Positions 32,892-55,218 of a stretch of 64,000 bases of DNA are shown here, piece by piece. Below the pieces are notes generated by a model, which was not told the DNA's origin, ran no database searches, and was given only the letters and a program-made list of their open reading frames with translations. Numbering within the stretch: the stretch's first letter is position 1; each line of letters begins with the position of its first letter. A program made the position numbers and the translations under genes. This DNA is from Octopus vulgaris (Eukaryota), in assembly GCA_951406725.2 (NCBI GenBank), contig OX597815.1, positions 179,180,001 to 179,244,000 on the forward strand, given 5' to 3'.

Positions 32892-34023
32892 CAGGGTGCG
32901 TTAGGTAAATTGTCGTAATTTTATTTTTTTTTATTTCACGCATGCGCATTGTTTGTTTCTGATTTTGTCGCCTGCACAGTATAGTAGGGTCAGTTAGTCA
33001 CCGTCTGTGACAAAAACAGCATCATGACGCAATTCACTCTGCCAGAAATTTGGAAATGACATGCTGTACTGCTTGGCATTCGCGCCGGAAGCTTCAATAC
33101 GAACATTTCAGAGAATTTGGGTGTCAATCTGAGGACAGTGCAATCTGAGGACATGTACCGAGAGCGATAAGAATCAGACATTGTCAACATCATGGTGTTT
33201 GGAGTGATCACTAGTGATGGCGACGTTATGCCTCCATTCATCTTCCCACACGGCCTCGGACTTAACATAGAGGCCTACATGAAGTGGCTGGGGTAGATAG
33301 TGCTGCTCTAGGTCAAGAGGGTAGCTGCTGGAAGACCCTATGTCTGGCAACAGAACTCTACACCATGATCACCAGCAGGAGAACCTAGCCATGGCTGATA
33401 CACAATTTCTGCGACCATATCACACCTAACATCAGGCCACCTAACTCCCCAGACTGCAACCCTCTTGAATTTTATGCGGGGCACAGTTGAGCGAGAGACC
33501 AACAAAACGCCTTGTAACACCAAAAATAAACTGAAGGCAAATATTACGGCAGCATTCACCAATTTAAACAAAAAGACCGCCCAGAAGAGTTGCAGGAGAT
33601 TCTGAAGGCGTCTGGCGGCCGTAGTTGGAGCCAATGGGGATTTTATCGGATAAATTTATTCTTTAGTATTTCAAGATATTTTTATATAATTTTGGTAAAT
33701 ATATTTGTTAAAATGAGATGTCAGTGTTATTTGAATTTTTGCGTAATTTAGACGACAATATATTCACCGCATTAAGGCGGCGAGCTGGCAGAAACGTTAG
33801 CACGCCGGGCGAAATGCTTAGCGGTATTTCGTCTGTCGTTACGTTCTGAGTTCAAATTCCGCCGAGGTCGACTTTACCTTTATCCTTTCGGGGTCGATTA
33901 AATAAGTACCAGTTACGCACTTGGGTTGATCTAATCGACTTAATCCGTTTGTCTGTCCTTGTTTGTCCCCTCTATGTTTAGCCCCTTGTGGGCAGTAAAG
34001 AAATATATATTCACCGCACCCTG
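32892..34023 (+). mobile_element. Tc1/mariner (maT-like) transposon, internally deleted
   Basis: TA-cagggtgcg...cgcaccctg-TA termini; IMVFGVITSDGDVMPPFIFPHGL, YVWQQNS, PPNSPDCNPL motifs. Confidence 0.85.
33772..34004 (+). mobile_element. SINE family B inserted in the transposon TIR
   Basis: TSD atatattcaccgca at 33758-33771 and 34005-34018. Confidence 0.9.
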
Positions 34024-35378: not shown

Positions 35379-36124
35379 GTTATTTTCCCCAAAAGAGAAA
35401 TTATAGGTTTCCCTTTTTTCCGGTTCAAAAATTAATTCCTTGCAAGAGGAACGACAGTTCAAATCCTCCCCCCCGTTTGGGGGCGGTGTGTAGCTCAATA
35501 ATGCCTATAAAGGCCAAATAATAACAATGTGTACTCCGTTAAAAATACATGGAATAAATAAATGCCAAATGGCCACAGAAATCTTTCTATTCCCCGGTGT
35601 CCCGGGAAATAATATACAGCTCAACGGTACTTGTATCGCAGAGTGGTCCCGGTTTGCACACACGCGCAGACGCGCGTCCGTGCTAGCCAGACGTAGGCAG
35701 TCGATCCTACAAGCTGACTGGCGCATGCACGATATATACGATATATACTTGTATCGATATATACGTGTATACGATATATACTTGTATATATACTTGTGCG
35801 ATACAAGTATATATCGTATATATACAAGTATATATCGTATACACGTATATATCGATACAAGTATTTATCGTATATATCGTGCATGCGCCAGTCAGCTTGT
35901 AGGATCGACTGCCTACGTCTGGCTAGCACGGACGCGCGTCTGCGCGCGTGCGCAAACCGGGACCACTATGCGATACAAGTACCCAGCTCAACAACACCTG
36001 CAAACAGACAGCAGTTCAACAATAAAAGTTTTTAACAAAAATACACAACGAATAACAAAATTTCAACAGAAAAATAATAACTTACAGCGCACAGAAAAAA
36101 AAACACGAACAACGTTGTTGAACT
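35379..36124 (-). mobile_element. 5' region of a Tx1-like LINE derivative
   Basis: Homologous to 52075-52438, which runs into Tx1-like RT sequence; preceded by a SINE-A head at 36125-36163. Confidence 0.6.
35626..35983. mobile_element. Near-perfect fold-back MITE (Mutator- or Merlin-like)
   Basis: ggtacttgtatcgca...tgcgatacaagtacc; 9 bp TSD cagctcaac at 35617-35625 and 35984-35992. Confidence 0.9.
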
Positions 36125-36401
36125 GGAAGCTAGTTTCTTACCACATAGCCCCCTCCCTGCGCCTATCGCAGCATAATTTGTTTGGTAAAACAAATATTCT
36201 GCTTAACAATCTTGTGATTACAGACATCTACCTATGTATATGTATGTGTGCGTGTATGTATGTATGTATGTATGTATGTATGTATGTATGTATGTATGTA
36301 TGTATGTATGATTGTATGTATGTATGAGTGTGTGTTTGTGTGTGTATGTATGTATGTATGCATCTATTTATCTATCTATCTATCTGTCTGTCTATACACA
36401 T

Positions 36402-36431
<30 letters not shown>

Positions 36432-36437
<6 letters not shown>

Positions 36438-36800
36438 TTATAAAAATGAAGTGAAAACGCCACTAGATAAGATAAATTTTAATTTTCTGAGAGATTTTAC
36501 ATGTTTCGGTTCTTCTTGAAAAATCGAATCTTATCAAAAATATTTTTAAAAGTTAAGTGTAATAAAAAAAGTTCATAACTGTTTCTTACTAGTCTCAACA
36601 GTCCACATTGTGGTGTTTTGTGTGTGAAACAATTATGAACATTTTTATTGCACTTAACTTTTAAAAATATTTTTGATAAGGTTCGATTTTTCAAGAAGAA
36701 CCGAAACATGTAAAATCTCTCAGAAAATTAAAATTTATCTTATATAGTGGCGTTTTCACGCTTCTTTTTTATAAATATATACCCACTCGTATGCCACCTA
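36432..36800. mobile_element. Fold-back element with hammerhead-like motif in each arm
   Basis: ~150 bp inverted arms; attt-TTGATAA-ggttc...gaacc-GAAA-catg-TA-aaat at 36669-36716. Confidence 0.75.
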
Positions 36801-36820
36801 CACTTTACACACACACTCAC

Positions 36821-36887
<67 letters not shown>

Positions 36888-36896
36888 ATACATACA

Positions 36897-37198
36897 TGGC
36901 TAATGTTTGCAAGTACACCGGCACGAAAAAATCTAGTTTTTTTTGAAAATTTTTCAGCGGAATCCTGTTTTTCCATATTATTAATCTGCATATTTTTCCA
37001 CGTAGACTGAAAAAAAAAAAAAAATTTCGAAAAAAAGTTGAAATTAAAAAATTTGTGGTGGGGAGGGAATTGAAAATTTTGAAAACATTATTTTTGGCAT
37101 ATTCAGAATCTCCGTCATCGAAACCACAAGGAATCCGCTGAAAAACATTTTTAAAAAAGGTCCAATTTTTTTCGTGCCTGTGTATTTGTAAATATTAA

Positions 37199-37201
<3 letters not shown>
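36897..37201. mobile_element. MITE with ~35 bp TIRs in (TA)n
   Basis: tggctaatgtttgcaagtacaccggcacgaaaaaa / ttttttcgtgcctgtgtatttgtaaatattaacca. Confidence 0.7.
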
Positions 37202-37276
<75 letters not shown>

Positions 37277-37279
<3 letters not shown>

Positions 37280-37639
37280 CACATAACCCCTAACATTTGG
37301 CCTGCTAATTCCCCAGATCTCAATCCACTGGACTATTACATGTGGAGCGTTGTTGAGAGAGAGGTCAATGAACATACTCATCACACCAAAGATTGAAAGC
37401 TGCTATAGTCAGAGTAATGTCCAAAATGAAACCAGTACCACTTGATTTGAGCATGTAGATTATTTAGATCTCATATAGAAACAGTTGTTGAAGCTGAAGG
37501 TGGCTTTATTGAATAACATGATAGAAAAGAAGGTTTATTTTTGTCCTTATAGCACTTTTTGATAAATAAAGTTATCTGTTATTATATATCTGTTTTTTTT
37601 TTATAAACAAATCTGGCCTCAAATATCTTACGCACCCTG
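37277..37639 (+). mobile_element. Tc1/mariner (maT-like) 3' fragment
   Basis: WPANSPDLNPLDYYMWSVVERE; ends cgcaccctg-TA. Confidence 0.85.
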
Positions 37640-37880
37640 TATGTACATAGGTAGATGTATGTAATCACACATGATTAATAAGCAGAGTGCTCGTTTTACG
37701 AAACAAATTATGCTTTCATGATATTTAAACGCTCGTCTGAGACTGGAGTATTTGAAATCGGGAGAAGCAGCATAAATTACTTGAGAATAACTACCTACAC
37801 ATAAAGAATTCGGAAGAAAAGAATTAACAGAGATATGTTCTCTGTAAAAAAAGTAATGCTCAAGATTCAGAAAGAGATTG

Positions 37881-37923
<43 letters not shown>

Positions 37924-38199
37924 ATAACATTAAATAAATGATAACGGGAACAGCATAACATTTTATTACATAGCGTAACAGTCAGATACTAGCGATTAAA
38001 AATACTCAGCTACTTACTAATATAACGAATAAGATGAATAAAAATCAATAGGCAGGAAACAGCGACCGAATCCAATCAATCAAACCGCAATAAACAAGGA
38101 AAATATTAACTTACACCCGTTATCTTTGTTAAAACAAAATTTATGCAATGGATTCTAAAACATGTTCATTGGGAATTACACACTCGCCAATGCACACTG

Positions 38200-38240
<41 letters not shown>

Positions 38241-38319
38241 TCTCTGTCCATTTCTCTCTCCCTTTCTCTCTATTTCTCTGTTTGTTTGTCTGTCTGTCTG
38301 TCTGCATTTAACTTCTATC

Positions 38320-39500
38320 GACAGAAAATCGGTGACCGCAATGGGCACGCGAATGGCCCCCTCCTTTGCTAACCGAGTCATGGGGTGCGTAGAAATCAAT
38401 CTTTATCGTAAGGTACATAAAAATACGGAAACCCATTTTCCCTGTACATAGAAAATAACTGGAAAATTTATCTAAATGACTGTTTCATTCTTTGGTACGA
38501 AAGTATAGACTTAAAGAATTTCAAGCACTTCTGAATGGACTTGACATAAACATTCAATTTACGATGGAATATAGCCACCTACAACTTCCATTCCTCGACA
38601 TCCTCATTAAGAAATCCAACAACAAAATAGAAATAGACATTTACTATAAGCCCACGGACTCTAAGCAATATCTGCCATCCAACTCTTGCCAGCCCAGACA
38701 CAGTAGAATGAATATCCTTTACAACTTGGCGAAAGGATTTGTACTATAGTAACTGATACAAGCACCAGGGACACACGATTACATGAACTAAAGCATACAT
38801 TCATCAGCAGGAACTACCCAGCATCACTAATTGATATAGGCTTTCAATGTGCCTTACAACTCAACATTCACGAACTCAGACACACCGGACTAAAGAAGGA
38901 TTTACAGCCAAAAGCCATACCATACATATCCCCACATATATAAACGATGAGGCCTTCGACACCATCCTCCAGAACACCCGTTTACTAAAAAGGGATCATA
39001 GAATGGATCAAATCCTCCAAACGCACACCATCATAAAGAGCAAAAGACAGCCCAAGTCATTATAAACTTTTCTAACACAGGCCCAAGTACACTCGTCAAC
39101 AACACCGAAACTGACAGTAAAAAAATGCGGAAGACCTAACTGTGGTATATGTGCCAACCTAACTGAAGGATCAGAATTCTCCTTCAAACAGGCTCAATGT
39201 TTTACAGTGAAATATAACTCCACATATGCTTCGGAAAGCCTAATATACCTATTAACTTGCTCAGGGTGTCGAGAAAAATATATTGGTCAAACTAAAAATA
39301 GTCTACACCAGAGGATGACGGTACATAGGTCCCAGATTAAAATACGAGAATACAGACAAATAGGATTAAGCAAGCGCCATTATTTGCGCCATTAAGGAAC
39401 AACCCAACGTTAGAATTTTTTCCCTCTATAAATTCAGGGACAATGCAACCTATAATCAGTGCGTTAGCAAAGAAGCATATTTTATCGCAAATTATTTTGA
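38320..39500 (+). mobile_element. Penelope-like retroelement: RT plus GIY-YIG, decayed
   Basis: TAMGTRMAPSFAN, YLND, NIQFTME..LPFLDI..DIYYKPTDSKQYL, CGRPNCGIC, LIYLLTCSGCREKYIGQT..LHQRMTVHR. Confidence 0.9.
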
Positions 39501-40138
39501 ATGCTTTCACCACAGATGAAACTACTACAAAAATTTAGAACAATTCCAGCCACTACTGTTACGACCACAACAGGTCACTTTTAGGTCATTTGACCATTAA
39601 AGAAGATTCCACGAACAATCTACTGTGTCACACCACTCCTGACATTTTTCTTTTCTTTCCCCTTCTTCCTCTTCTTTCCCTACTCCCATTTCTCTTCCTT
39701 CTTCATATCCCCCTCCCCTTCCTTCTTCTTCTTCTCCATCGGCTGCTCCTGCTTAAACCATCAATTCTCTGTACTCATAAAACTATTTCTTCAGATTTGC
39801 TACTACCTAAATACCAACCATTCACAAAGGAAGAGAGAAAAGAGAGAGACTATTTGAAGACTATGGAAATATTTACAAAACATTTCACTTAATTTTGTGC
39901 TCTCCAATTTAGTTGCTTTTCTTGTTTTACTCTAAGTTGAAAACGTCTAAAAGACGCAAACCAGTACTAAAATGTGCTTCGTGATAAAATTATTTTAGCA
40001 TTTTCTACCTTGTCTTATTTCCGACTAGCGGTCGCTTTGTATGAAACTCGCTCTTACTGCAGATTTTCGCTCGTACTTCAAGACAAAATTTCGCACGCGC
40101 CTTGGTTAGTACAGCAAATTACTCGTACAATGGTGCAC

Positions 40139-40208
<70 letters not shown>

Positions 40209-40209
<1 letters not shown>

Positions 40210-40394
40210 TTTTATTTTAAGCAGCAGAAAATTCAACAAAATCTGTTACTCTGAGTTTCTCGTTGCCGGCAACGAGAAACTCAGAGTAACAGATTTTGTT
40301 GAATTTTCTGCTGCTTAAAATAAAGCATATTACTCTACCACTGGTATTTGAGTACTCTTTTTTCCACCTTGTTTCACATTTATGTGTTTACTCC

Positions 40395-40396
<2 letters not shown>
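40209..40396. mobile_element. Spacer-less palindrome plus tail, same family as 57029-57256
   Basis: Arms meet at 40267/40268; between (TA)n tracts. Confidence 0.85.
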
Positions 40397-40483
<87 letters not shown>

Positions 40484-41033
40484 ATGTATGAATTTATGCA
40501 AATATACGTACGTGTTAGTTCTTGATAATAAAGTACTGCCACTTAATTTAAATGTGCTTTGCCATAAGTCGAATACATATTATTGACTTTTGCTAGAGTT
40601 ATGACCAAATCTAGAACATAGCGGAGCCGGAGAAAACTCGTATAATTCCATAATAAGTACTGATAACAACGTCTCTTAATAAATTTCGCCGTACCCCAAT
40701 ACATATTCAAAAACAAATAAACTATTCTAATATAAATATATGAAAAATATAGATATACAGAATGTTCATATCGAGAGCTGGTATAATCAACATAATAATA
40801 GGTAAGGATGAAAAGAGATGCCGACGGATAAATTATCCAGGCTTTAGGACATTCAAACATGCACGAGGAAAATATACTAGCTTAGTAGTACTGTATGTAT
40901 GTATGTATGTATGTATGTATGTATGTATGTATGTATGTATGTATGTATGTATGTATGTATCTATGTTTGTATGTATGTATGTATATATATATATATGTGT
41001 ATTATGTTTTCCAGTTTCAGCTCTTGAGCTGTG

Positions 41034-41086
<53 letters not shown>

Positions 41087-41286
41087 GGATATATACACAT
41101 GCATTTGTATGTGTGTGTGTGTGTGTGTACAGAAAGCATAATATCTATATATGATATAAAACAAAAAGAACAAAATACGCTGCACATGACCAAAGTATAC
41201 GGCTCTGCATTTGACTTTGCCGCAGAAAACCTCCAATAAAAAGAAAATTAATGGAACAATATCAATAATAATATTAAAAGTAAAAG

Positions 41287-41287
41287 C

Positions 41288-41343
<56 letters not shown>

Positions 41344-41392
41344 TAATAATCATGATGTTGATGATGATGATGATAATAATAATAATAATAAT
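41287..41392. repeat. (AAT)n/(GAT)n microsatellite
   Basis: Direct inspection. Confidence 0.95.
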
Positions 41393-42053
41393 GAAATTAT
41401 AAAAAGACTACGAAATGATAATAGATATCGCGGAGTCGATATTGGAAACAGATATAATCACCATAATAAGACTCTGGGTAAGAATATAATAACATAAGCC
41501 TATAAATCCTCGGAATCCGTAGAATTCGCACAAATGGAATTGAAAAAAAAAGAAAAGCAGGTATCAATATAAAGAATCTGTGCCGTCAATACATTTGCAG
41601 TGGTAGCTATAAAACATGGCTGCGTGGTATTGGAATAGAGAGCACCGGATCTAAATTACATAGACAAGAAATCTGCTAAAAATACGGTTATTAGGACAGA
41701 ATATGCCGGATTTACTATGATTGTACAATACTAGACGTGAAAGTGGTAGGAGACTATCGAGACACAGAGAATGATATCAGAAGTGCAGTTAGTAATGTTG
41801 CAGCATACATTTCCTATTCAGGCGAAGTTATGCTTCGTATCCTTGTTGGTTATGATCTTAAAATGATCGGAAATCGATTATATCCACAGCAAACAAAATT
41901 CTCACGGGAAATTCGGTGGAAACTTCATGCAGTTAGAATCGAAACCCGAAGCAGCAGCAAAATTGGACATGACTGATGAGCATCCTTAGTGAACAACCGT
42001 AAAAAAGTACTTTTTACATGGCTAATATTCCTGCGATAGGACTTAGAAAATTC

Positions 42054-42565
42054 ATATCACGTGATCGACAAGACTATCCGATGTTGTTATACATCATTGA
42101 GCACGATGCGCTTTTCATCGTTTTAACTTTCGAATGATGTCATCCCATTGATCATAAGGCGGCGAGCTGGCAGAATCGTTAGCACGCCGGGCGGGCGAAA
42201 TGTTTAGCGGTATTTCGTCTACCGTTACCTTCTGAGTTCAAATTCCGCCGAGGTCGACTTTGCCTTTCATCATTTCGGGGTCGATAAATTAAGTACCAGT
42301 TACACACTGGGGTCGATATAATCGACTTAATCCGTTTGTCTGTCTTTGTTTGTCCCCTCTGTGTGTAGCCCCTTGCGGGCAATGAAGAAATATGATGGCA
42401 TCCCATTGATCAGAAGGCTAGTTAAGTGTAGGGTGACCTGTTTACAGCTAAGTGAACTGGAGCAACGAGAAATAAAGTGTTTTGCTCAAAAAGACGACGC
42501 AACGCTCATTCCGGGGATCGAACCCCCGTTCTGGTAACACCCTATCCAGTAGGCTACGCGCCTTT
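42054..42565 (-). mobile_element. CORE-like SINE sharing the type 1 tail, interrupted by SINE B
   Basis: ggttcgatccc B box, ttgagcaaaacactttatttctcgttgctccagttcac; tail like 8205-8300. Confidence 0.6.
42155..42392 (+). mobile_element. SINE family B
   Basis: Full copy; flanking direct repeat catcccattgatca at 42141-42154 and 42399-42412. Confidence 0.9.
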
Positions 42566-42682
42566 ACAGATAATTCATATACAAATACAAAATATACCCC
42601 CGCCTGGATGGGCACACCCAGCTTGAATGGGCAAAAGATACAAAATATTTTCACGATACAACAGACCGTTACCGTTAGCATA

Positions 42683-42749
<67 letters not shown>

Positions 42750-43651
42750 GTTGGAAATAAGATTCGTACCCAAGGAATACCCAGCCATAACAAAAATATG
42801 CTCTTGATACCAAAGGCATCAAATTATTGTATTTGATTGTAATTGATTATCATTTCATCTTCCGGAGAAGAAAGAAAATCAGTGAAACTCAACGCGAAAA
42901 CAAAAGACGTACCTCGAGGGAAAGATTTACAGAGGTTAAAAACAACAGAGAACTGAAAAGAAAACGTATGCCAAAGAAAGCTAAAGAGAGAGACAACCTC
43001 TTTTATTCATATTCAATCTTCTGCAAAAGCTAGCAATGAAAAGAGCGGTGAACTAATATATAAAAGCCCGTAATAGTTCAAAGTCTCTAGATTTCGAGTA
43101 AATACGAAAAGGTTCGAAATTAATTGCATATGATCAAAGTCTAATCATAAGAGAAGTACGGAAATGCAATAATAAAACAAGAGACGAGCAGAAACAAGAG
43201 ATAATGCATACATATAAAGACGCTTAACTACAGTCTTTCTGACCAACAAGGTAGGTAGTTTTATTTGTTATTGGTTAGATATTTTCACATCAAATCTAAG
43301 TATAAAGTGAGAGCTGTCTGTCCAAACTGCCAAGAAGATTAAAGCGAACAGTCTAGAAACTAGAAAGCCTAAAAAAAAGAAAAGAAAAAATGACTAGAAG
43401 GAAAGCAAAATTGTCTCTGAGTTATCTCGTTCCCTTTGAACCAAAACATCGTTGCAAATAGATTTTAAAATATACAAGAGGACCGCAATACAATGAAAAG
43501 TCAGATGCCGTCATTGTAGAGATGATGAAAACGAAAGGAACCAAACATTTAAAATACTAGACGCGGCCCGAAAACTACAGGAACATATTCTATACAATGC
43601 ATTTTCAGAGTAGTAACACAACTCACACAATAGTTAATCTACGCCAGTTCA

Positions 43652-43717
<66 letters not shown>

Positions 43718-43871
43718 AATACAACAATAAGAATCAACAAAGAAATTCCGAAAATATGGTGTCTTATGCAACACAAACGCCTTTCTCACAACACAAAATG
43801 ACAGTGGTGAACGCACCAGGCACGAAACCCTTTCACTGGTGACCTATCGATTCTCCCACTATACCTTAGTA

Positions 43872-44290
43872 TACCTATTTCTTTACTACCCACAAGGAGC
43901 TAAACACAGAGACGACAAACAAGGACAGACAAACGGATTAAGTCGATTATATCGACCCCAGTGAGTAACTGGTACTTATTTAATCGACCCCGAAAGGATG
44001 GAAGGCAATGTCGACCTCAGCGGGATTTGAACTCAGAACATAAAGACAGACAAAATACCTATTTCTTTACTACCCAGAACGGGCTAAACACAGAGAGGAC
44101 AAAAAATAACAGACAAAAGGATTAAGTCGATTATATCGACCCCAGTGCGTAACTGGTACTTAATTTATCGATCCCGAAAGGATGAAAGGCAAAGTCGACC
44201 TCGGCGGAATTTGAACTTAGAACGTAGCGGCAGACGAAATACCGCTAAGCCTTTCTCCCGGCGTGCTAACGATTCTGCCAGCTCGCCGCC
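43872..44290 (-). mobile_element. SINE family B tandem
   Basis: Same internal junction as 2605-2997. Confidence 0.85.
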
Positions 44291-45209
44291 CTATCCCACT
44301 ATAATTTAGTATACCGAGACATCGAACTATCGGTACATATCCTTTACCCATTATTTAAACACAATAATTTACTCCTCAAACCTAAAACTGAAATATTCCT
44401 CTTTGCAAAAATAGTTGCAAATGTTACAGAACATACTTTTGTTTTATTGTTTACTCTTAATTAAATTTTGCGGCTCGAACAAGACCTGAACAAATTGTAG
44501 CATTGAAAATGTCTGGCATAAAGAATTGTGAAGTGATAAAACGGTTGAGAAAAATTTAAGGATTATGGTGAAAGCAAAGGGTGGCCATTTTGAATTAAAA
44601 GTATGCGTAAAATATTGTCAATAAATTTAACAAACAACCTGTAAACCTTCATTAATCAAAACCTAAAACCTTTTATTTTATGATAAAATGAATAATAAGT
44701 AAATTCATATATGATGCATCCGGTGGCTATTATCTCCAATTTCTTTCTTTGTAAAAACAAAAGATTAATATGTAATTAACTAATTTTAAAATCTCGAGTT
44801 GTGTCGTTGCTAAAGAGTTCAGAAGGAGGACGAAATAGTACTGTCTACGGCTACCAGAGATTTTAAGGACTTTATCGCATGAAAACATAAAAGAATTATA
44901 TGGAAATATATATATATATATATATATACTCTCTTCACTCTTTGATAATGATTTTATGTAAGGAAAATAAACTTAGAAGTGATTCTCTCCCTTAGATAGC
45001 AATCTCCAGTGTTTCCAACACTTGTCTTTTGTCATTCTCGTCCGTCGTTTATGTCTACCAAACAAACAAATATATGGTGCGCAACGCAAAGAATAACCAA
45101 ACTTCTTGTAGGCTGTGTTTGTTGCTCGATTTCGCGATCGTTTTCTTGTTTAGTTCTAGTTCATCCTTGACTAATGATCAACGCTATTCTAGTTACGAAC
45201 ATCTGGTCT

Positions 45210-45265
<56 letters not shown>

Positions 45266-45481
45266 GCAATTGCAGGATGCAACCGAGCAGCTTCTTCAGG
45301 GTCTGTCCATTTAGCTAGTATCGAAGTGAACTGATAAAGTGGTTTGTTAGTCAGGGTTCAAGGGGAGATGGAGGGGGGCGGAGGTAGTTTTGAACCTGGA
45401 ATTTGATCTGTTTCTAAGCTTGCGCTGTTGACCTCAGTTTCACACCGGTTACTGTCCAAAGTTAGGGTTGTATCTAACTAG

Positions 45482-45716
45482 AGACGGCGGCGAGCTGGCA
45501 GAAACGTTAGCACGCCGGGCGAAATGCTTAGCCGTGTTTCGTCTGCCGTTACGTTTTGAGTTCAAATTCCGCCGAGGTTGACTTTGCCTTTCATCTCTTC
45601 GGGGTCGATAAATTAAGTACCAGTTACGCACTGGGGTCGATATAATCGACTTAATCCGTCTGTCTGTCCTTGTTTGTCCCCTCTGTGTTTAGCCCCTTGT
45701 GGGTAGTAAAGAAACA
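45482..45716 (+). mobile_element. SINE family B
   Basis: TSD ggttgtatctaactag at 45466-45481 and 45717-45732. Confidence 0.9.
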
Positions 45717-45987
45717 GGTTGTATCTAACTAGGTCAAGGCTGGTGTTACATTTCTTAAGCGTTTTGGTATGTTTATGTAAGCATCTTAAGACCTGTTCAA
45801 GTCTAGTGTTACGTATAGTAGAAGACACTTGCTCAAAGTGCCGTGCAGGGGGACTGAACTCGGAACTATGTGGTTGGGAACTATATAGTTGGGAACCTTC
45901 TAACGCCTATTTAACATATATCTAAACTCACAGAACATTGCGATCCCAAGTGAGTTTTGATTATATTTCGAAAATTCTTATTTTACC

Positions 45988-46716
45988 AATTGCAGCGTGG
46001 GAAGTGTTTATAAGCCATTTAAAAACACACAAAATCTGTTAGATTCACTTCAACATTTAAATTTAATTTGTCAAAATATTTTCGTCGCTTTGAGGCCGCG
46101 ACCTGTTCACTGACAAAATTCCGTGCTACATAAAATACTAATTTATTTTTATAAAAATTTTTTTAAATTAGCCTCATTTTTGATATTTTCATAATAATAA
46201 TGATGCATTTTAAGGCGGCGAGCTGGCAGAATCGTTAGCACGCCGGGCGAAATGCGTAGCCGTATTTCGTCTGCCGTTACGTTCCGAGTTCAAATTCCAC
46301 TGTGATCGACTTTGCCTTTCATCATAAATTAAGTACCAGTTACGCACTGGGTTGATGTAATCGACTTAATCCGTTTGTCTGTCCTTGCTTGTCCCTTCTG
46401 TGTTTGGCTCCTTGTGGGTAGTAAAAGAAATAAATAATAATACATTTATCATAACTATGATAATACTTTTATGATAACTTTTAATTATTTTGATAAAAAT
46501 AAATGAGAAATATACGCAGCACGGAATTATGTCAGTGAACAGATAGCGGTCCCAAAGCGACGAAAATATTTTGACAAATTAAATTTTAATGTTGAAGTGA
46601 ATCTGACGGTTTTTGTGTGTTTATAAATGGCTTATAAACACCTTCCACGCTGCAATTGTTTTTGTTTCAGCACACGATCTCTGATCAGGTCACTTGCTAT
46701 ACAAGTACATCTCCGT
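45988..46716. mobile_element. Fold-back element with hammerhead-like motifs, spacer interrupted by SINE B
   Basis: Arms ~45988-46132 and ~46512-46658; tgtca-GTGAACA-g-gtcgc...gcgac-GAAA-atat-TT-tgaca. Confidence 0.75.
46211..46432 (+). mobile_element. SINE family B
   Basis: Family B head to gaaata tail. Confidence 0.9.
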
Positions 46717-47086
46717 AGTATTTTACCAATGTTCTTGAGAAGGTTATGAGCTTCACTGAATCTTGTTTCACATTAATCAGAAACTCACTTGCAGCATGAA
46801 AAATAAAAGTAAGGTAGAGTTGAATTTCATTCATCCTAGACAATCACGCGAATATAATTGGTTAAGAGGACAGTAAAATGGTTTTGTTATGTTGTTTTGA
46901 AAGGTTACAAGTCTCGAGCGATGAAACCTTAGAAGAATTGTTTATTAAGATTAATGAAATATAAAGAAAATGAATTTAAAGTAAAAACGAAATTCAAGTA
47001 TTCATAACATATCTCTACTCGGGGACAACGGAATGCACGACTAAACAATAATATGACGGAATGGAAACCACAATACACACAGGCAC

Positions 47087-47183
<97 letters not shown>

Positions 47184-47394
47184 GATACGCAAAGCAGCAA
47201 CGCCCACACATGAGCTTATTTGTATGTGCTGACACACACATATGGATGTGTATGTTTCTAATTTCATGATGATGATGATAATGATGATGATGATGATGAT
47301 CATCATCATCATCCTCATCGTTATCAAATTTATGTATATATATATATATATTTATGCTTACATGTATATAAACACGTGTGTTTGTGTGCGTATG

Positions 47395-47429
<35 letters not shown>

Positions 47430-47559
47430 ATACATATAAATATACAAACACACACACACATATATATACATTCATATAATATATGCATACATGCATACAC
47501 ATATAAACACACGCACACGTACCTTATGCATACTTACATACATACACACATGTATACGC

Positions 47560-47647
<88 letters not shown>

Positions 47648-47655
<8 letters not shown>

Positions 47656-47823
47656 ATACACTTCACATTTGGAAATGAAATTATATTTGATTTGCAGCCT
47701 CATAAAAAGAAAAAAAACTTTTTCTTTTCTTCATAACGTTTTACTTATTATCATTTAATTAGATATTTGCCGTCAACATTGTGTTTATTCAGAACAATCT
47801 TCCACCTTACAGAGTAGTATGCG

Positions 47824-47898
<75 letters not shown>

Positions 47899-48780
47899 TG
47901 TTATTATGATCATTTTTTTTTAGATAAGATTATAAGAAATGATTTACATTTCTAGCGGTTCAAACTTACATCTTCTGGCATACATTACAAATACGCTTTA
48001 AAATAAAAAATATTTATATTTTTGGATATAAATTTTTGTCTTACGAATGTAGGTTCTCCTGCCGTGAAGATAGCTGTGTTTTTATGCAAGCTGTCATAGA
48101 TTAGTTTCGGCAATCGTCAATTCACATCTGACGTGCCTCACGTTGTATGGTATTGTATAGTCAATCATAACGACGAGACAAAGACAAATAATGTGTATGA
48201 TGATGATGATGCTGTTGCTGCTGCTGATGATTGTAGTGGTAGTGATGAGGTAGATGATAAGGGTGATTGATACTGCTTCTGCTGTGGCTGCAGATAATAT
48301 CTGTTTTAGAGATGGTCTATAAATATTCGCCAGGGTAGGTGTAAGTATGAATATATGCTACGAGGGTACATGCATATCTGAATCGATTCTATTTGTGCAG
48401 AGTATATATTAGGGTAAATTTCGCTACTTTGTTTGCATGTACGCATGTGTGTGTGTGTGTGTCTGTGCAGATTGTTTGTGTAGGTGTGTATGCGTAGCTC
48501 TGTGTGTATGTATGTATGTGTGTGTGTGTGTGTGTGTATGCGTGTGTGCATGCATGTGTGTGTGGATATGCATGTTTGCATTCACGCTCGCGAATCTCAG
48601 AGTCACTCCTTTTGACTAGCATTCTCAGCCATTTTCTCTAAAGTTGTGAATATTCTTGAGAATTTCTTAATTTCCTGCTTACTTAGACGACATAAGAACA
48701 TATTTTCATAACTAGACATATTTTACAAACTTACACACATACACAAACACACATTATGTGCATTATGTGTTTGTGTGCCT
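47648..48780 (+). repeat. Local direct duplication, copy 1
   Basis: Colinear with 49923-51081, including (TTA)n and (GAT)n tracts. Confidence 0.95.
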
Positions 48781-48847
48781 TTATATATATATATATATAT
48801 ATATACATACATACATACATACATACATGCACACATACATACATACA

Positions 48848-48883
<36 letters not shown>

Positions 48884-49060
48884 TTTTATAGAAGGAGCTT
48901 CTACAGGACTAGAACTGTTTCATTCAGATGAAATCTTCAGGAAGCCCTGAATGAAACAGTTCTAGTCCTGTAGAAGCTCCTTCTATAAAATAAATTACTT
49001 TACTCTGCTATGTATTGAGTACCTTATTTACTGTGGTTAACTCCGACTCAACCCGGGACC
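48884..49060. mobile_element. Fold-back element (44 bp arms) plus tail in (TA)n
   Basis: 48884-48927 mirrored by 48947-48990. Confidence 0.85.
48897..48945 (-). ncRNA. Type I hammerhead ribozyme motif
   Basis: GCUUC-CUGAAGA-UUUCA-UC-UGAAU-GAAA-CAG-UUCUAGUC-CUG-UA-GAAGC: stems I, II, III and canonical core, GUA site. Confidence 0.7.
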
Positions 49061-49132
49061 TACATATATATATATATCAGAAATATTAAATTTCTAAATA
49101 TCTCATAGAGATATGTACGGTGGTGGAGCGAT

Positions 49133-49260
49133 AGAGTGGTTGTATACTGTCAGCTTAACGTGACAGTCCTGTTTTACACCGATGTTTCCTAGGGCTAAAC
49201 AGCGGTGGTGTAATTCCCTCACAGGACTGTCACGTTAAGTTGACAGTATACAACCACTCT
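49133..49260. mobile_element. Small MITE with ~39 bp TIRs
   Basis: agagtggttgtatactgtcagcttaacgtgacagtcctg / caggactgtcacgttaagttgacagtatacaaccactct; diverged relative near 1610-1720. Confidence 0.8.
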
Positions 49261-49272
49261 CTCTATATATAT

Positions 49273-49702
49273 AGGCGCAGGAGTGGCTGTGTAGTAAGAA
49301 GCTTGCTTCCCAGCCACATGGTTCCGGGTTCAGTCCCACTGCGTGGCACTTTGGGCAATTGACTTCTACTATAGCCTCGAGATGACCAAAGTCTTGTGAA
49401 TGGATTTGGTAGACGGAAACTGAAAGAAACCTGTCGTATATATGTATATGTATATATATATATGTGTGTGTGTGTGTTTGTACGCCCCCCCCACCAGCAT
49501 CGCTTGACAACCGATGCTGGTGTGTTTACGTCCACGTAACTTAGCGGTTCGGCAAAAGAGACTGATAGAATAAGTACTGGGCTTACAAAGAATAAGTCCC
49601 GGGGTTGAGTTGCTCGATTAAAAGGCAGTGCTCCAGCATGGCCGCAGTCAAATGATTGAAACAAGTAAAAGAGTAAAAGAAAGAGTAAAGAGTAAAGAGT
49701 AA
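49273..49702 (+). mobile_element. SINE family A, full length
   Basis: ggcgcaggagtggctgtgtagtaag head to (agtaaag)n tail. Confidence 0.9.
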
Positions 49703-49751
49703 ATATATTTAACAAATGAGTCATGAATTCTGGCCTATTCTGTGTATATGT

Positions 49752-49880
49752 ATTCTTTTACTTGTTTCAGTCATTTGATTGCCGCCATGCTGGAGCACCG
49801 CCTTTAGTCGAACAAATCGACCCCAGGACTTATTCTTTGTAAGCCTAGTACTTATTCTGTCAGTCTTTTTTTCTGAACCG

Positions 49881-49882
<2 letters not shown>
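49752..49882 (-). mobile_element. SINE family A 3' fragment
   Basis: Inverted relative to 49273-49702. Confidence 0.85.
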
Positions 49883-49922
<40 letters not shown>

Positions 49923-49930
<8 letters not shown>

Positions 49931-50115
49931 ATACACTTCACATTTGGAAATGAAATTATATTTGATTTGCAGCCTCATAAAAAGAAGAAAAAAACGAATT
50001 TTTCGAAGAAAACTTCTTTTCTTCATAACGTTTTACTTATTATCATTTAATTAGATATTTGCCGTCAACATTGTGTTTATTCAGAACAATCTTCCACCTT
50101 ACAGAGTATTATGTG

Positions 50116-50163
<48 letters not shown>

Positions 50164-50766
50164 TGTTATTATGATCATTTTTTTTTAGATAAGATTATAA
50201 AAAATGATTTACATTTCTAGCGGTTCAAACTTACATCTTCTGGCATACATTACAAATACGCTTTAAAATAAAAACAAAAAAAAAAGCAAGAAAATATTTT
50301 CTTGTTTTTATAGTTTTGGATATACATTTTTGTCTTACGAATGTAGGTTCTCCTGCCGTGAAGATAGCTGTGTTATTATGCAAGCTGTCATAGATTAGTT
50401 CGGCAATCGTCAATTCACATCTGACGTGCTTCACGTTGTATGGTATTGTATAGTCAATCGTAACGACGAGACAAAGACAAATAATGTGTATGATGATGAT
50501 GATGATGATGATGCTGTTGCTGCTGATGATGATTGCAGTGGTAGTGAAGAGGTAGATGATAAGGGTGATTGATACTGCTTCTGCTGTGGCTGCAGATAAT
50601 ATCTGTTTTAGAGATGGTCTATAAATATTCGCCAGGGTAGGTGTAAGTATGAATATATGCTACGAGGGTACGTGCATATCTGAATCGATTCTATTTGTGC
50701 AGAGTACATATAAGGGTAAATTTCGTTACTTTGTTTGCATGTACGCATGTGTGTGTGTGTGTGTGT

Positions 50767-50806
<40 letters not shown>

Positions 50807-51081
50807 ATTGTTTGTGCAGATTGTCTGTGTATGCGTGTGTGCATGCATGTGTGCGTGGATATGCATGTTTGCATTCACGTTCGCGAATCTCAGAGTCACT
50901 CCTTTTGACTAGCATTCTCAGCCATTTTCTTTAAAGTTGTGAATATTCTTGAGAATTTCTTAATTTCCTGCTTACTTAGACGACATAAGAACATATTTTC
51001 ATAACTAGACATATTTTACAAACTTACACATACACACACACACACACACAAACACACATGTGCATTATGTGTCTGTGTGCC
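49923..51081 (+). repeat. Local direct duplication, copy 2
   Basis: Colinear with 47648-48780. Confidence 0.95.
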
Positions 51082-51106
51082 TGTATATATACATACATAT
51101 ATACAG

Positions 51107-52438
51107 GCCAGAGGTGCCTCAACCTTAAGGCCAATTTTCGCATCCTCAGTCAAGGCATCCCTAGCTAACCCTTTAGCGGTTTTTGAAAGCAGTCAGAGCC
51201 CTTCACAAGTGGCTTTCCTACCTTCCACAAAAAGCGTAAAAGAATTCTTTCCAACTTGTTCAACCACAAATCGGGGCAAGGCACAGCGGTCAGGCGGTAG
51301 GTGATGACTGATGCTATGAACATCTGCGCCACCTCTGCCCGCCCCAGCAAAGATAACGCCCGCCCAGACGAGGTCTGGGTTAAGGCCATCACCTTGTTCG
51401 TGACCTCGCTCCAATTTTTCTCTATCTGGAGGTCTGGGCCGAATCAGACCCTAGCAGCTTAACCGGACTTTCCGTTCAACGCTCCACGACGTTATTGGAC
51501 GACATCGACTTGCCCTTCCAGGTGCCGAGTTGCAAGCCGACCGACTTTTCCTGGTTAACCTTTGCTCCTGCTACCGCCTCGTATCGTTTTAAACATTTCC
51601 TGGAGTTCCCCCAATGAGATCTCCAGACTTTCCATTTGTACTGCTGCGACTGCCGCAAAGCCTTTGGTGACTTATTTTGGAGGCTGGTTAGCCTCCAAAG
51701 CCTCACACTCTTCGAGAGAGCATTTTTCTCTTATTATTCCCACTGACTTTTCGGTCGCAATGAATAAGCAGAAAACACACGAACAAAAAAAAAAAAAAGA
51801 AAAGAAAAAAGGAAAATAGTTCCCAGATTTTTTTGGGCAATCAATAAGTTCAAATCCCACCCCTGTCAGTGGTGGGAGCGTGGCTCAATGAAGCCAAAAA
51901 TGGCTGAAAAAAAACAGTTCTTTTTTTCCAAAGGAAAAATTATAGGATTCCGTTCCTTTTTTTTTTTCTGTTCAAAAACATTACTTTCTCTCAAGAGAAA
52001 CAACAGTTCAAATCCAACCCTCATCAGGCGGAGCTCGAATAAAGAGCCTAAAACGGCTGAATACAATTTTTTTTCAAAAGAAAATCATAGGTTTCCCCCT
52101 TTTTTTTCCACAGTTCAAAAATTAAATTCTTCGCCATAGGAACAACAGTTCAAATCCCATCCTCGTTTGGGGGTGGGCCGCAGTTCAACAATGCTTACAA
52201 AGGATAACTTTTAAAAAATGCACTGCGTTGAAGAATCCAATCGAAGAAACAATTGCCAAATGGCTACAGAAATTTCACTATTCTCCGAAATACCGGGAAA
52301 TAAAATTCTCCAACGCAGCCTGCAGACAGGCAACAGTTCACAATAATAATTTTCAACAACAGTTTACAATAAATAACAGAATTTCAACAATTATAACTCA
52401 CAGAGCGGAAATAAAATCACGACCGAAGTCTTCAACCG
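51107..52438 (-). mobile_element. Internally deleted Tx1/L1-like LINE (5' region with ~150 bp subrepeats plus RT fragment)
   Basis: YEAVAGAKVNQEKS, LSLLGRAEV..FIASVITY, LERILLRFLW, PLKG..GMP motifs; cagttcaaatcc repeated three times. Confidence 0.8.
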
Positions 52439-52574
52439 GAAGCAAACTTCTTTATTTCATAGCCAGGCTATGCAAGATGTACATTAGAGGAGACAACACA
52501 AGATCGGGACAAAAAACAAAACGAATGGAAAGGATGAATTAATATAATGAAAGATAAAATGAAGCGACAACGTT

Positions 52575-54490
52575 TTTTTTATTAAAAAAAATTTTTTTTT
52601 TAAACCTAGTTTATAACAATTATTAGCGACAGCTAATTATCATTCCCCCGAAGGATGTTTACATTGTGCTTCCTTAAAATATCATAAACACGTAATTGTT
52701 TAGGCATTGAGCTGGTGTCCACTCACAGTCATGGTTTTCCTCAAAGTCTTTCAATCTTGATATATATTCTGGGTCTGCCACAACACAACGAAGGTACTCG
52801 GAGCATCGCTTTCACTCCTGATACATCAACTTTTATAACACTGTCCCACGAGTATATTTCGTGGATCTTTTCGGTTTGAACGGCAGTTTTTAAACGTGTT
52901 TATAAAACATCTTTTTCTCTTGGCTTTATTGAGAAAATTCTATAGTTTGTAAGATATCTGTTGTTTTTCTTCAACCAATCAATTACGTCCATTGAGGTAA
53001 ACAACATTCTGTGCCGTGTGAATATGTCCCTCCTTTAAGAGACAGATTGGGTTTATTTACATTTGTGAAGAAAAAAAGATACCCTTCCCCCAACCCCTAA
53101 CCCTAACTCTAAAACAGATTGAAATGCAATAGATCGATACTAGGGTCATAATTATGGGTGACAATTTCATATGACACCGCTAGAAAAAACTGCCGTTCAA
53201 ACCGAAAAGATCCTATTTCGTTATACACTTCTTCATTGTCTCTACGGTACATTATAACATATTTTTCAAAGGGCGAGGGTGGGGAAATTTGGGGCTCCTG
53301 TGTGTTTGTGTTTGTCAGGTAGGGCATGGAGAGGGCTGGTGTCTGTAGGGAGTGGTTGGGGTAGAGTGGATGTGGGCGAGAGCTGGGTGGGTGTGGGATG
53401 GGGTTCGTCCTTTACAGCGTGTGCCTTTTTTCCCTCTTCTCTTTTCCCCAGCTGTATCCCATTCATTGTCCATCTCCTCTTCTTCAACACTGGTACTGGT
53501 TTTTATCTGTAGCGCCACTCCACTCTCCTTTTCCTCAACCTCCACGGGTAGTAGAGCACCAGCCACTTTCTCATTCTCTTGTCTCTCCTTAGCCTTCACA
53601 TGTGATGGTGGCCAATCCGCTCTAATGTGGCCTTTTAAGCCACATTTATAGCATCACGGAAACTTCCATTCCACTCTACCTTTCAGTGTTGCGTCTCCGA
53701 CCGTGATTGTCTCTACCATATTTTCGATAACTTCCACGGCAACCTGTACCACCATATCGAGGTTTTGTCTTTACCAGTTCCTGTGGGATATTCTGGTGGC
53801 CTGAAGGACCACTACCTTCTCCTCCATGCTTAACAGTATGGCAGCTACCAGCGAGGCCATATCCACTTCTGGGGTAGATGAACCACTGCATCAGTTCTCA
53901 GCGGTGTTGCTGAGTGCAGCCTGGCAGTAGCTACCTCCCGAAACCGCACCTCCACTGTTCCAAATTTTCTACCTTTGGGGAGGTAGGTGATTCCCTGCCA
54001 GATTGGCCTAAGTGCCTTTTCTACCTGAGCCGTTGACATGATCTCAATCTTCCTGGCGGCCACCGAGTACGTTCTGTAACTTATTGTCTTCTCACTTTTT
54101 TCTTTTAAAACTTCTTTGGGGGTAAGGGGAACCCCTTCACTTCGTTCCCCTCCCTTTCAATCATTCCCTTGAACTTGCTCACGTCCTCCAGACTAACGTC
54201 TTTGCTTCTTTCTTTCGTCACCTCTGCATAATTATTCGTCTAGATTGCTTTATCAATCCTCTTCAAATACTCCACCATTTCCTCCTCAGACGACTCAAAG
54301 TCTGAAGAAGGATAGTTTACAAAGTTTAAAGAAGAACAATTCAAGCCTTCACAACTCCTCACCCGACGCCCCTCCATTAAACAAGAGGGAAAACGTCGCA
54401 CCGCCAAGACAGCAAAAAAACAAAACAAAACAAAACAAAAAACACGTGTGTTACTAGCAAAACCAACAATCCAACTGACAAACGCTATAC
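52575..54490 (-). mobile_element. Tx1/L1-like element with gag-like ORF1 only and A-rich 3' end
   Basis: Broken ORF with GRKFGTVEVRF and zinc knuckle CYKCGLKGHIRAD near 53610-53650; no ORF2 seen before the poly(A). Confidence 0.65.
52863..53213. mobile_element. Merlin-like MITE
   Basis: TIR ggatcttttcggtttgaacggcagttttt; 8 bp TSD tatttcgt at 52855-52862 and 53214-53221; GG termini. Confidence 0.85.
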
Positions 54491-55218
54491 CGGAAGCAAA
54501 TTTCTTACCACACAGCCACTCCTACGCCTATATATATATCTATATATACACACAAACATCCACATATATGCACATATACACACACACATTCATACACGCG
54601 CACACACACACAGTTTTGTTATGTTGTCGGAAAAATGAGTGTTACTTGGCCTCTGACAAGTAGAAAAAGAAATCATCTTGATATTATTTCTGCGTTGACA
54701 GGAACGGTTAGATCGCTTTCTAATGAATCCATATTCATTATTGTTTCGGGTTAAAATCTCTAGTGTGACAACGTTAAATTTAACATAAATTTTGTAATGT
54801 CGATGTGTGTGGATTAAATATTTATAAATTAGTTAAGCACTTCGTCTACAAATGCAAAACATGCAGCTCGGTTTGAGTTTGTGCTTGAGAAGAACGGGTT
54901 GAAGAATGAGGCATACATGAACTCCGAAGAGTAGCCAATCCGTCATGAAATATGTCAAGGGAGTATCATTTATTTTTCTTTTGTGCAAAGACAATAAAAA
55001 GTTGTACTTATGTTTGTGAAAATACAGAATACAGGAATTATTGCAACGTTACTGTAATGACGATAAATTTTTAAATACACGCTGTTTCTGAATAACACAC
55101 ACACACATTTTATATCTTAAAGATACTATATTCTAACTACATTGAATCTTGGGTTTTTTTAACACCTGCTGTTTGGGAATAATCCATCTATCCATTCATC
55201 AATAAATCCATCCACCCA

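Follow-up and report, generated by a model that had tools for sequence, protein, structure and literature searches.

A SINE head as the landing site of L1-group LINEs and their ORF1-only passengers in Octopus vulgaris

SINE targeting by LINEs is real in Octopus vulgaris, as seen in a fixed 3' junction, a duplicated site, a SINE that resumes after the insertion, tandem stacking, and an intact family that uses the same base. In our reading, to which we give a probability of roughly 85%, site-specific LINEs of the L1 group (Tx1-like) and ORF1-only passengers insert at one base of a SINE head, with a target duplication of about 15 bp or less and likely by target-primed reverse transcription.

RESULTS

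Two SINE-head junctions and one tandem junction in the window

The window is a 64,000-nucleotide stretch of contig OX597815.1. Its relevant parts, from element B through A to C and an intact SINE, are:

54507..54528, minus strand: the initial ~22 nt of the target SINE head, left 5' of element B, recognised by sequence
54492..54506, minus strand: 15-bp target, first copy, oldest SINE variant (v1)
52453..54491, minus strand: element B, an ORF1-only passenger
54147-53609, minus strand: decayed ORF1 of B; weak zinc-knuckle match (E 0.023, below cut-off)
52863..53213, no strand: miniature inverted-repeat element within B; 29-bp terminal repeats, 8-bp target duplication
52438..52452, minus strand: 15-bp target, second copy, between B and A (the middle "SINE head" of the first-pass annotation)
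51110..52437, minus strand: element A, 3' end lost; 5' UTR, ORF1 start and a piece of ORF2
51746-51570, minus strand: ORF1 start of A, fused by deletion to ORF2
51592-51141, minus strand: ORF2 residues ~705-855 of A; 79-87% identical to the intact family Y
36140..36163, minus strand: second SINE head remnant, 5' of element C
36125..36139, minus strand: target copy ahead of C, v1 with two changes
35385..36124, minus strand: element C, limited to a 5' UTR that is ~76% alike to that of A
35626..35983, no strand: palindromic insertion within C; 9-bp target duplication
49270..49600, plus strand: target SINE with uninterrupted head and body, the empty-site reference

The first-pass annotation had proposed three junctions between a SINE head and an element, and the strings of all three are present on the minus strand. 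Two of them hold: a head is joined to an element at 36163-36125 and at 54528-54492, and both heads break at the base where intact copies go on CAACCACATGG. The middle one (~52464-52434) is instead the tail of B, a duplicated target and then A; positions 52500-52453 are the 3' tail common to copies of the B family. In total, two junctions with a SINE head are present in the window, plus a tandem one in which the order is head / B / duplicated target / A. A C-to-T change at position 7 is common to the target copies on either side of B, which is what a genuine duplication predicts, and the same change is found in two of the four intact v1 heads of the window. Chance as the origin of the junctions is excluded by the genome-wide samples described below.

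The first-pass annotation was right that the rest of the SINE is not visible at the 3' ends here: within the window no SINE body lies 3' of A, which stops near 51110, or of C, which stops near 35385. Neither an ORF remnant nor a 3' end was found for C. Members of the B family are ~1.70-1.76 kb long at 8 of 11 loci with both ends, and their 3' tail carries a small hairpin; the window copy is lengthened by a 351-bp insertion. The miniature inverted-repeat element in B and the palindromic insertion in C are both later insertions. ARAGORN found no tRNA gene within the window, and on that evidence a tRNA gene as the original target was set aside.

An intact family of the L1 group uses the same base

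Family Y, an intact 5.4-kb relative of A, uses the same SINE base. Its ORF2 matches Exo_endo_phos, RVT_1 and zf-RVT above cut-offs, and its ORF1 matches zf-CCHC (23.9 bits, above cut-off); a zinc knuckle agrees with Tx1-type ORF1 as described in PMC5203782. The best solved relative of ORF2 is human L1 ORF2p (E 1e-66, versus 1e-19 for R2). Homologue searches returned no Tx1-named sequence, the named relatives being fish and Capsaspora reverse transcriptase proteins at 26-30% identity. Element A is a decayed LINE of the L1 group and putatively Tx1-like. B is a ~1.7-kb ORF1-only passenger, and the passengers are ORF1-only deletion derivatives.

Genomic copies are flanked by the SINE site on both sides

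We collected genomic copies of A and B with element-only queries, excluding the window copies (n = 29 per end type). The SINE site lies at the 5' end of 26/29 A-type and 26/29 B-type copies; it directly follows 24/29 B-type 3' ends and follows two more behind an interrupting insertion (26/29), and the SINE resumes after most site-flanked B-type 3' ends. This is the flank check that the first-pass annotation had called for, and mostly unrelated 5' flanks, the outcome it had named as fatal, did not appear. All 30 Y 5' ends examined, of 83, are at the site. An 18-nt tail motif has 178 matches; among the first 100, the site follows in 94. Loci L111-L140 and L161-L190, which were selected with patterns that include the site, do not enter these estimates of specificity.

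The elements have no LTRs, a fixed 3' end, variable 5' truncation and a duplicated target, as in L1-group non-LTR retrotransposons. Most copies sit at one position of a repeat with both flanks derived from it, as in a sequence-specific LINE. In truncated copies the duplication can be as short as ~1 bp or as long as 16 bp, which implies a second cut without a fixed position. The site is nearly palindromic, and three tails (L165, L199 and L214) lie reversed at its mirror position, which fits a protein able to read CTT/AC on either strand.

The first-pass annotation had weighed a LINE family aimed at an abundant SINE against LINEs that captured the A-box head of the SINE. In the second case the head would serve as 5' end or promoter of the element itself, and insertion could occur anywhere. 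Capture has a precedent in crocodilian Tx1 families with snRNA-derived 5' ends (PMC4758252), and full-length Y copies do bear a few target-derived 5' bases whatever the target. However, the head lies outside the first target copy and precedes 5'-truncated copies (clear in 7 of 10 such Y copies), which makes it a target and not a captured promoter. In addition, 14 of 26 A-type 5' sites (by eye) and 4 of 30 Y 5' sites adjoin the tail of another element and no head. Capture is refuted by the 3' flanks, where the SINE resumes, and we regard it as almost certainly wrong; what survives of it is that full-length copies of the young family seem to bring ~5-7 target bases. Targeting of the SINE is upheld by the same 3' flanks, by the truncated copies behind the head, and by an intact APE- and RT-encoding family at the same base.

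Three SINE variants of different age are hit

Named octopus SINE families include OK, OR1 and OR2. The last of these is mentioned in PMC4758252. There are 72,753 exact heads of the target SINE in the genome, and its three variants are not equally old (v1 has on average 4.4 mismatches per 30 nt, v2 2.3 and v3 0.7). Diagnostic bases in the downstream SINE body agree with the 3' target variant in 27/28 called cases for v2 and 20/27 for v3, so the targets truly differ. Two simpler ideas were discarded. That young SINE variants escaped targeting is ruled out, as all three variants are hit. That the young family is restricted to v3 came from 12/12 intact copies with a 3' site, at loci chosen for intact ORF2, and is ruled out by equally young copies in v2.

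The site might be favoured through chromatin, or through RNA polymerase III factors bound to SINE heads, without any reading of its sequence. The site is just past the A-box-like part of the tRNA-like head (by inspection; ARAGORN calls no tRNA gene in the window), and v3 is over-used, with about 54 v3 and 27 v2 among the first 100 strict tail matches versus 28 and 43 among the first 100 intact heads. Such a preference, though, does not readily account for precision to a single base, for insertions at sites that were regenerated next to the tail of another element and lie kilobases away from the A box, or for the absence of Y tails at the oldest variant, the A variant (0/109, where this variant makes up 22 among the first 100 exact heads). 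We consider this explanation improbable.

Target bases at the 5' junction are likely carried by the RNA

Full-length Y copies inserted in v2 targets end in v3 sequence at the 5' junction in 15 of 15 cases, and an extra T at this junction is found in 12/15 copies in v2 targets versus 6/29 in v3 targets (Fisher p 2.6e-4; both hand tallies). The v3 bases were likely brought by the RNA, since full-length Y in v2 targets still show the bases of the youngest variant. A search for a 5'-end ribozyme at four loci gave no Rfam ribozyme match at E up to 5, only microsatellite matches, and element 5' ends fold no better than shuffles; both results come from methods that model pseudoknots poorly.

An antisense target motif in the 3' UTR of several families

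The tail hairpin is 90% paired, with 13 cells changed on both sides, and none of 500 shuffles scored as high, among rows that are related. Several families carry in the 3' UTR an 8-12-nt antisense copy of the target. In one tail group, the state of this motif agrees with the target base in 33 of 36 called tails. The motif changed six times on the tree, from which 7 of 39 rows were omitted (two with the motif uncalled, three too short, one duplicate and one of the other tail group), and no change went against the target in independent pairs; the test itself had three independent pairs on well-supported branches (median p 0.5). The match recurs in a second tail group, which has the motif at -80 rather than -46. 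The motif of family A makes a 12-bp stem in the fold and is split by a 1-nt bulge; ungapped it is 6 nt (p 0.2, not significant). B and three sister families that use other targets lack the motif, their longest match being 4-5 nt (p 0.56-1.0), which rules it out as a lineage-wide feature.

These observations could be by-products of a specificity set by protein alone, with the match of family to variant reflecting age and endonuclease drift. The motif and the carried 5' bases would then come from template-switch correction at a near-palindrome, or from a transcription start that happens to fall in the target copy. The variants do differ in age, as given above, and B has no motif. The hairpin-loop region of the endonuclease differs at 3 of 7 residues between families A (v1) and Y (v2/v3), and again in the sister family Z, a difference that is not significant alone at ~75% overall identity. 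The agreement in 33 of 36 tails, the six unopposed changes and the repeat in the second tail group speak against this explanation. So do three mismatched motif copies that persist, and hence correction at the locus is not automatic. On balance, we give specificity by protein alone a little less than an even chance.

DISCUSSION

A proposed model for insertion at the SINE head

For insertion at the SINE head we propose four steps. First, the ORF2 endonuclease would nick the bottom strand at 5'-CTT/AC-3', setting most of the specificity, and passengers such as B would borrow it via the shared tail hairpin. Second, full-length RNA would begin ~5-7 nt inside the donor's target copy, and the cDNA end would anneal to the new target and close the 5' junction, as proposed for R2; an RNA that starts there would explain why Y junctions end in bases of the youngest variant whatever the target. 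Third, each insertion would leave two usable sites, which would give arrays such as B / A. Fourth, and weakest, the antisense 3' UTR motif may tune the choice of SINE variant by pairing, either with read-through target sequence or with the top strand of the target. This pairing is not required, because B and the sister families are site-specific without the motif. A broader version, in which the RNA of an APE LINE tracks a moving target through 5' target bases and 3' UTR antisense, both updated across three SINE variants, so that pairing helps site choice and could retarget the element without protein change, seems to us rather doubtful.

The usual relation of the two element types is reversed here: LINEs have in the SINE a landing place that is safe and renews itself. 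Many copies carry at their ends pieces of this site that vary with the SINE sequence and may aid in finding or finishing insertions. Age-ordered single-base target variants, together with old, young and sister LINE families, form a natural series for the specificity of APE LINEs, which serves two questions: how such specificity is gained or shifted, and how the 5' junction is closed in LINE integration. If RNA motifs contribute, insertion here would be tuned in part by RNA, which would make the system interesting for targeted gene insertion.

Comparison with known systems

We found no SINE-targeting LINE in the literature searched, which excluded Repbase, subscription journals and bioRxiv supplements, any of which may hold one. 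The text of PMC13282606 has neither "target" nor "nested" and one supplement lacks "target"; the word "SINE" is absent from PMC8869645.

For SART1Bm and R1Bm it has been proposed that a short stretch resembling the target, located in the 3' UTR or in read-through RNA, anneals at the target during priming (PMC7265360). As there, a short target-derived sequence is proposed here to pair at the target. The SART1Bm and R1Bm motifs have the sense of the top strand and base-pair with the primer strand, whereas the octopus motif runs antisense and, in the usual orientation, is unable to pair with the primer.

The R2 ribozyme cuts upstream in the 28S rRNA and leaves target sequence at the 5' end of the RNA; according to a published proposal, this sequence anneals to the new site, which makes the 5' junctions uniform (PMC3774820). 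The same annealing of target bases is proposed here. R2 elements combine a restriction-like endonuclease with an HDV-like ribozyme and bring as many as 36 nt of an invariant target; the octopus elements are APE LINEs with ~5-7 nt, no ribozyme found, and a variable target. Because the target varies, the carried bases are visible here, unlike in R2.

Closest are the transposon-targeting Tx1 families in the available text of PMC4494074: Tx1L in Tx1D of Xenopus, and the crocodilian Tx1-Mar, Tx1-8_Crp, Tx1-4_AMi and Tx1-9_AMi, with the passenger SINEU-3. They share with our system an APE-type LINE at a set site of another mobile element, non-autonomous passengers at the same site, and tandem copies that sandwich a duplication. 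The Tx1 targets named in that text are piggyBac, Mariner, Harbinger and LTR elements, U2, U5, 5S, satellites and microsatellites, with no SINE among them. The octopus system differs in its SINE target with age-ordered variants and in passengers that are ORF1-only deletion derivatives; it is a variation on transposon-targeting Tx1-type LINEs.

Insertions at the SINE-A head

The first-pass annotation described three Tx1-like 5' ends joined to the same position of the head of SINE A, an abundant SINE with a tRNA-like head, and left two options: a LINE that targets the SINE, or LINEs that captured its head. All three reported strings are present in the window. Those before elements B and C are SINE-head junctions, but the middle one is not borne out: the sequence preceding it is a tail (element 3' end) common to many genomic copies, so the order in the window is SINE head, target, B, target, A. 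Here the target, or site, is 15 bp of the SINE-A head.

Features of the window (window positions)
54528-54492, minus strand: SINE-A head before B
54491-52453, minus strand: element B
53213-52863: miniature inverted-repeat element within a LINE remnant (B), with an 8-bp duplication; presumably hAT-like
52437-51110, minus strand: element A
36163-36125, minus strand: SINE-A head before C
36124-35385, minus strand: element C
35983-35626: palindromic element within a LINE remnant (C), with a 9-bp duplication; presumably Mutator-like
35378-34585: second copy of the miniature inverted-repeat family, within LINE remnants

A position-7 change is common to both target copies flanking B. Neither A nor C retains its 3' end, which explains why no SINE body is seen in the window. 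The insertions in B and C are later events, each with its own duplication.

We searched the genome (2.8 Gb, 227 contigs) with element sequence only, and took for each query the 30 top-ranking loci among 41-51 matches, the window itself being one of the 30. The 15-bp site lies 5' of 26 of the 29 other A-type 5' ends and of 26/29 other B-type 5' ends; where it is absent, mostly the element 5' end is missing or the site deleted. Upstream of the 26 A-type sites we found, by eye, another element's tail in 14 and a SINE head in 11. At the other B-type 3' ends, among which two loci are neighbouring duplicates, the site and remaining SINE come next in 22/29 (the site partly deleted in one), the site is followed by another element in two, it is reached beyond an interrupting insertion in two, and the element is joined to SINE body further downstream in two; nothing was seen in one. 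Exact genomic matches to an 18-nt tail motif number 178, and among the first 100 a strict site pattern follows 67; inspection of the remaining 33 revealed a variant site in 27, a deleted site in one, a partial site in one, reverse orientation at the mirror position in two, and probable chance matches in two.

The option of a SINE head captured as the element 5' end is ruled out, because 5'-truncated copies of Y, a young intact relative of A with the same insertion base, also adjoin the SINE head, clearly in 7 of 10 and partially in one. The data show targeted insertion into the SINE head by a LINE lineage, with a probability of roughly 0.85.

The target is nearly palindromic, and tails are joined at its mirror position in reverse orientation in L165:1518-1577, L199, and L214; the first of these is a short fold-back structure.

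Element families

B belongs to an ORF1-only family of ~1.7 kb, and no ORF2 was found between B-family ends in 13 loci. A is an old, decayed ORF1+ORF2 family with an internal deletion, whose ORF2 piece matches Y at 87-89%. Y is 5.44 kb long and encodes an ORF1 with a zinc knuckle and a 1133-aa ORF2 carrying APE, RT, and zf-RVT domains; its closest solved relative is human L1 ORF2p. ORF1 type and resemblance, rather than a tree, suggest placement in Tx1 proper. The genome holds 83 exact Y 5' 25-mers and 109 exact tail-plus-site 30-mers, hence Y copies seem mostly full length, an unusually high share for an L1-group element. The site was present at each of the 30 Y 5' ends examined, with a SINE head upstream in 26 and another tail in four. 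A 4-bp tail hairpin with compensatory changes is common to all these families (20 hand-chosen tails).

Sister families, 77-78% identical in the RT piece, are located in three other repeats with their own duplications. They have intact ORF2 and duplications of ~16-20 bp each (L154-L158, L301-L305, and L310; L306; L307-L308), and units of 5.28 kb from one family are arrayed in runs of six or more (near 29.18-29.21 Mb of G000:C5). Several further short families (~0.8-2 kb; L207, L232, L236-L238, L240-L244, L152, L164) have different 5' ends and no DNA match to Y, and they are found at the SINE-A insertion base, stacked with Y copies. L240-L244 (G000:C14, 73.45-74.31 Mb) represent a segmental duplication, in which a single insertion is present as five near-identical copies that share their flanks. 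A second abundant SINE (33772-33998, plus strand, and six further window copies) has a tail resembling those of these LINEs; downstream of many copies lies an internal fragment of this SINE, as if it were self-inserting, and one copy lies in a SINE-A site (L021).

Target variants and the 5' junction

The target SINE has 72,753 exact heads in the genome. The first 100 listed comprise, by hand count, 18 v1 (AAGAAGCTTGCTTCC), 43 v2 (AAGTAGCTTGCTTAC), 28 v3 (AAGTAGCTTGCTAAC), and 11 mixed. Divergence places v1 as oldest and v3 as youngest (15, 25, and 15 copies for v1, v2, and v3). SINE-body bases further downstream track the 3' target variant, so the variants represent different subfamilies. The window's families lie almost all in v1, and Y in v2 and v3. 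Target position 4 is A in 22/100 exact heads and in 0/109 targets next to Y.

Full-length Y 5' junctions end in CTAAC in 30/30 5' ends examined and in all copies with both junctions paired. In 15 Y copies with a v2 3' target, the 5' copy has the v3 ending in 15/15. An extra T is present at 12/15 Y 5' junctions in v2 targets versus 6/29 in v3 targets (p 2.6e-4, counted by hand), and L215, an older relative, has an extra T and a v1 ending. Truncated copies have target-type duplications of ~1-16 bp. We lean towards a model in which 5' junction bases are carried from the donor and guide the junction: Y RNA would start within the target copy of the donor, ~5-7 nt in, and the cDNA end would pair with the new site, cleanly when donor and target variants agree.

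Target and element start together form CTTCCGG in families A and B (54496-54488, 52442-52434), and other families (L232, L164, L270) begin with GCGCATGCG. We take these starts to resemble ETS and NRF1 promoter motifs, a hint that RNA polymerase II may start at the junction.

An antisense motif in the tail

The Y tail contains an exact 9-nt antisense match to the target at -80 (p 0.002 versus shuffles). Y relatives have an 8-nt match, and a third tail group has an 8-10-nt match at -46. The motif base pairing with target position 4 agrees with the target in 33/36 called tails of the -46 group, and such agreement is also seen in the -80 group. Together with read-through target, the motif forms a stem closing round the tail (Y z -2.15 versus -0.12 without read-through). 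A 32-tail tree implies 6 changes of the motif and 8 of the target, and well-supported branches provide only 3 independent motif-target pairs, none opposed (median p 0.5). A needed role is counted against by the absence of the motif from B and the sister families, by its bulged form in family A, and by an endonuclease loop that also varies between families. The present data fit a by-product as well as a function, and we regard a functional motif as rather unlikely.

Proposed mechanism and known systems

The junction anatomy is observed directly; by analogy with established TPRT chemistry, the ORF2 endonuclease would most likely nick the bottom strand at CTT/AC, reverse transcription would begin at the fixed tail end, and the cDNA end would be joined by pairing with the target. 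Each insertion would regenerate two sites, giving rise to stacks, and passengers such as B would use ORF2 in trans.

An octopus repeat annotation lists L1-Tx1 families, and a SINE target was not found in the text or supplement searched (PMC13282606). The openly accessible papers searched gave no description of a LINE with a SINE target. No ribozyme was found at the element 5' ends in the four loci compared with Rfam. The carried-base model parallels the R2 model with upstream ribozyme cleavage (PMC3774820). The lineage resembles the Tx1 families already described as targeting other transposons in having a target within another mobile element, passengers, and tandem copies (PMC4494074).
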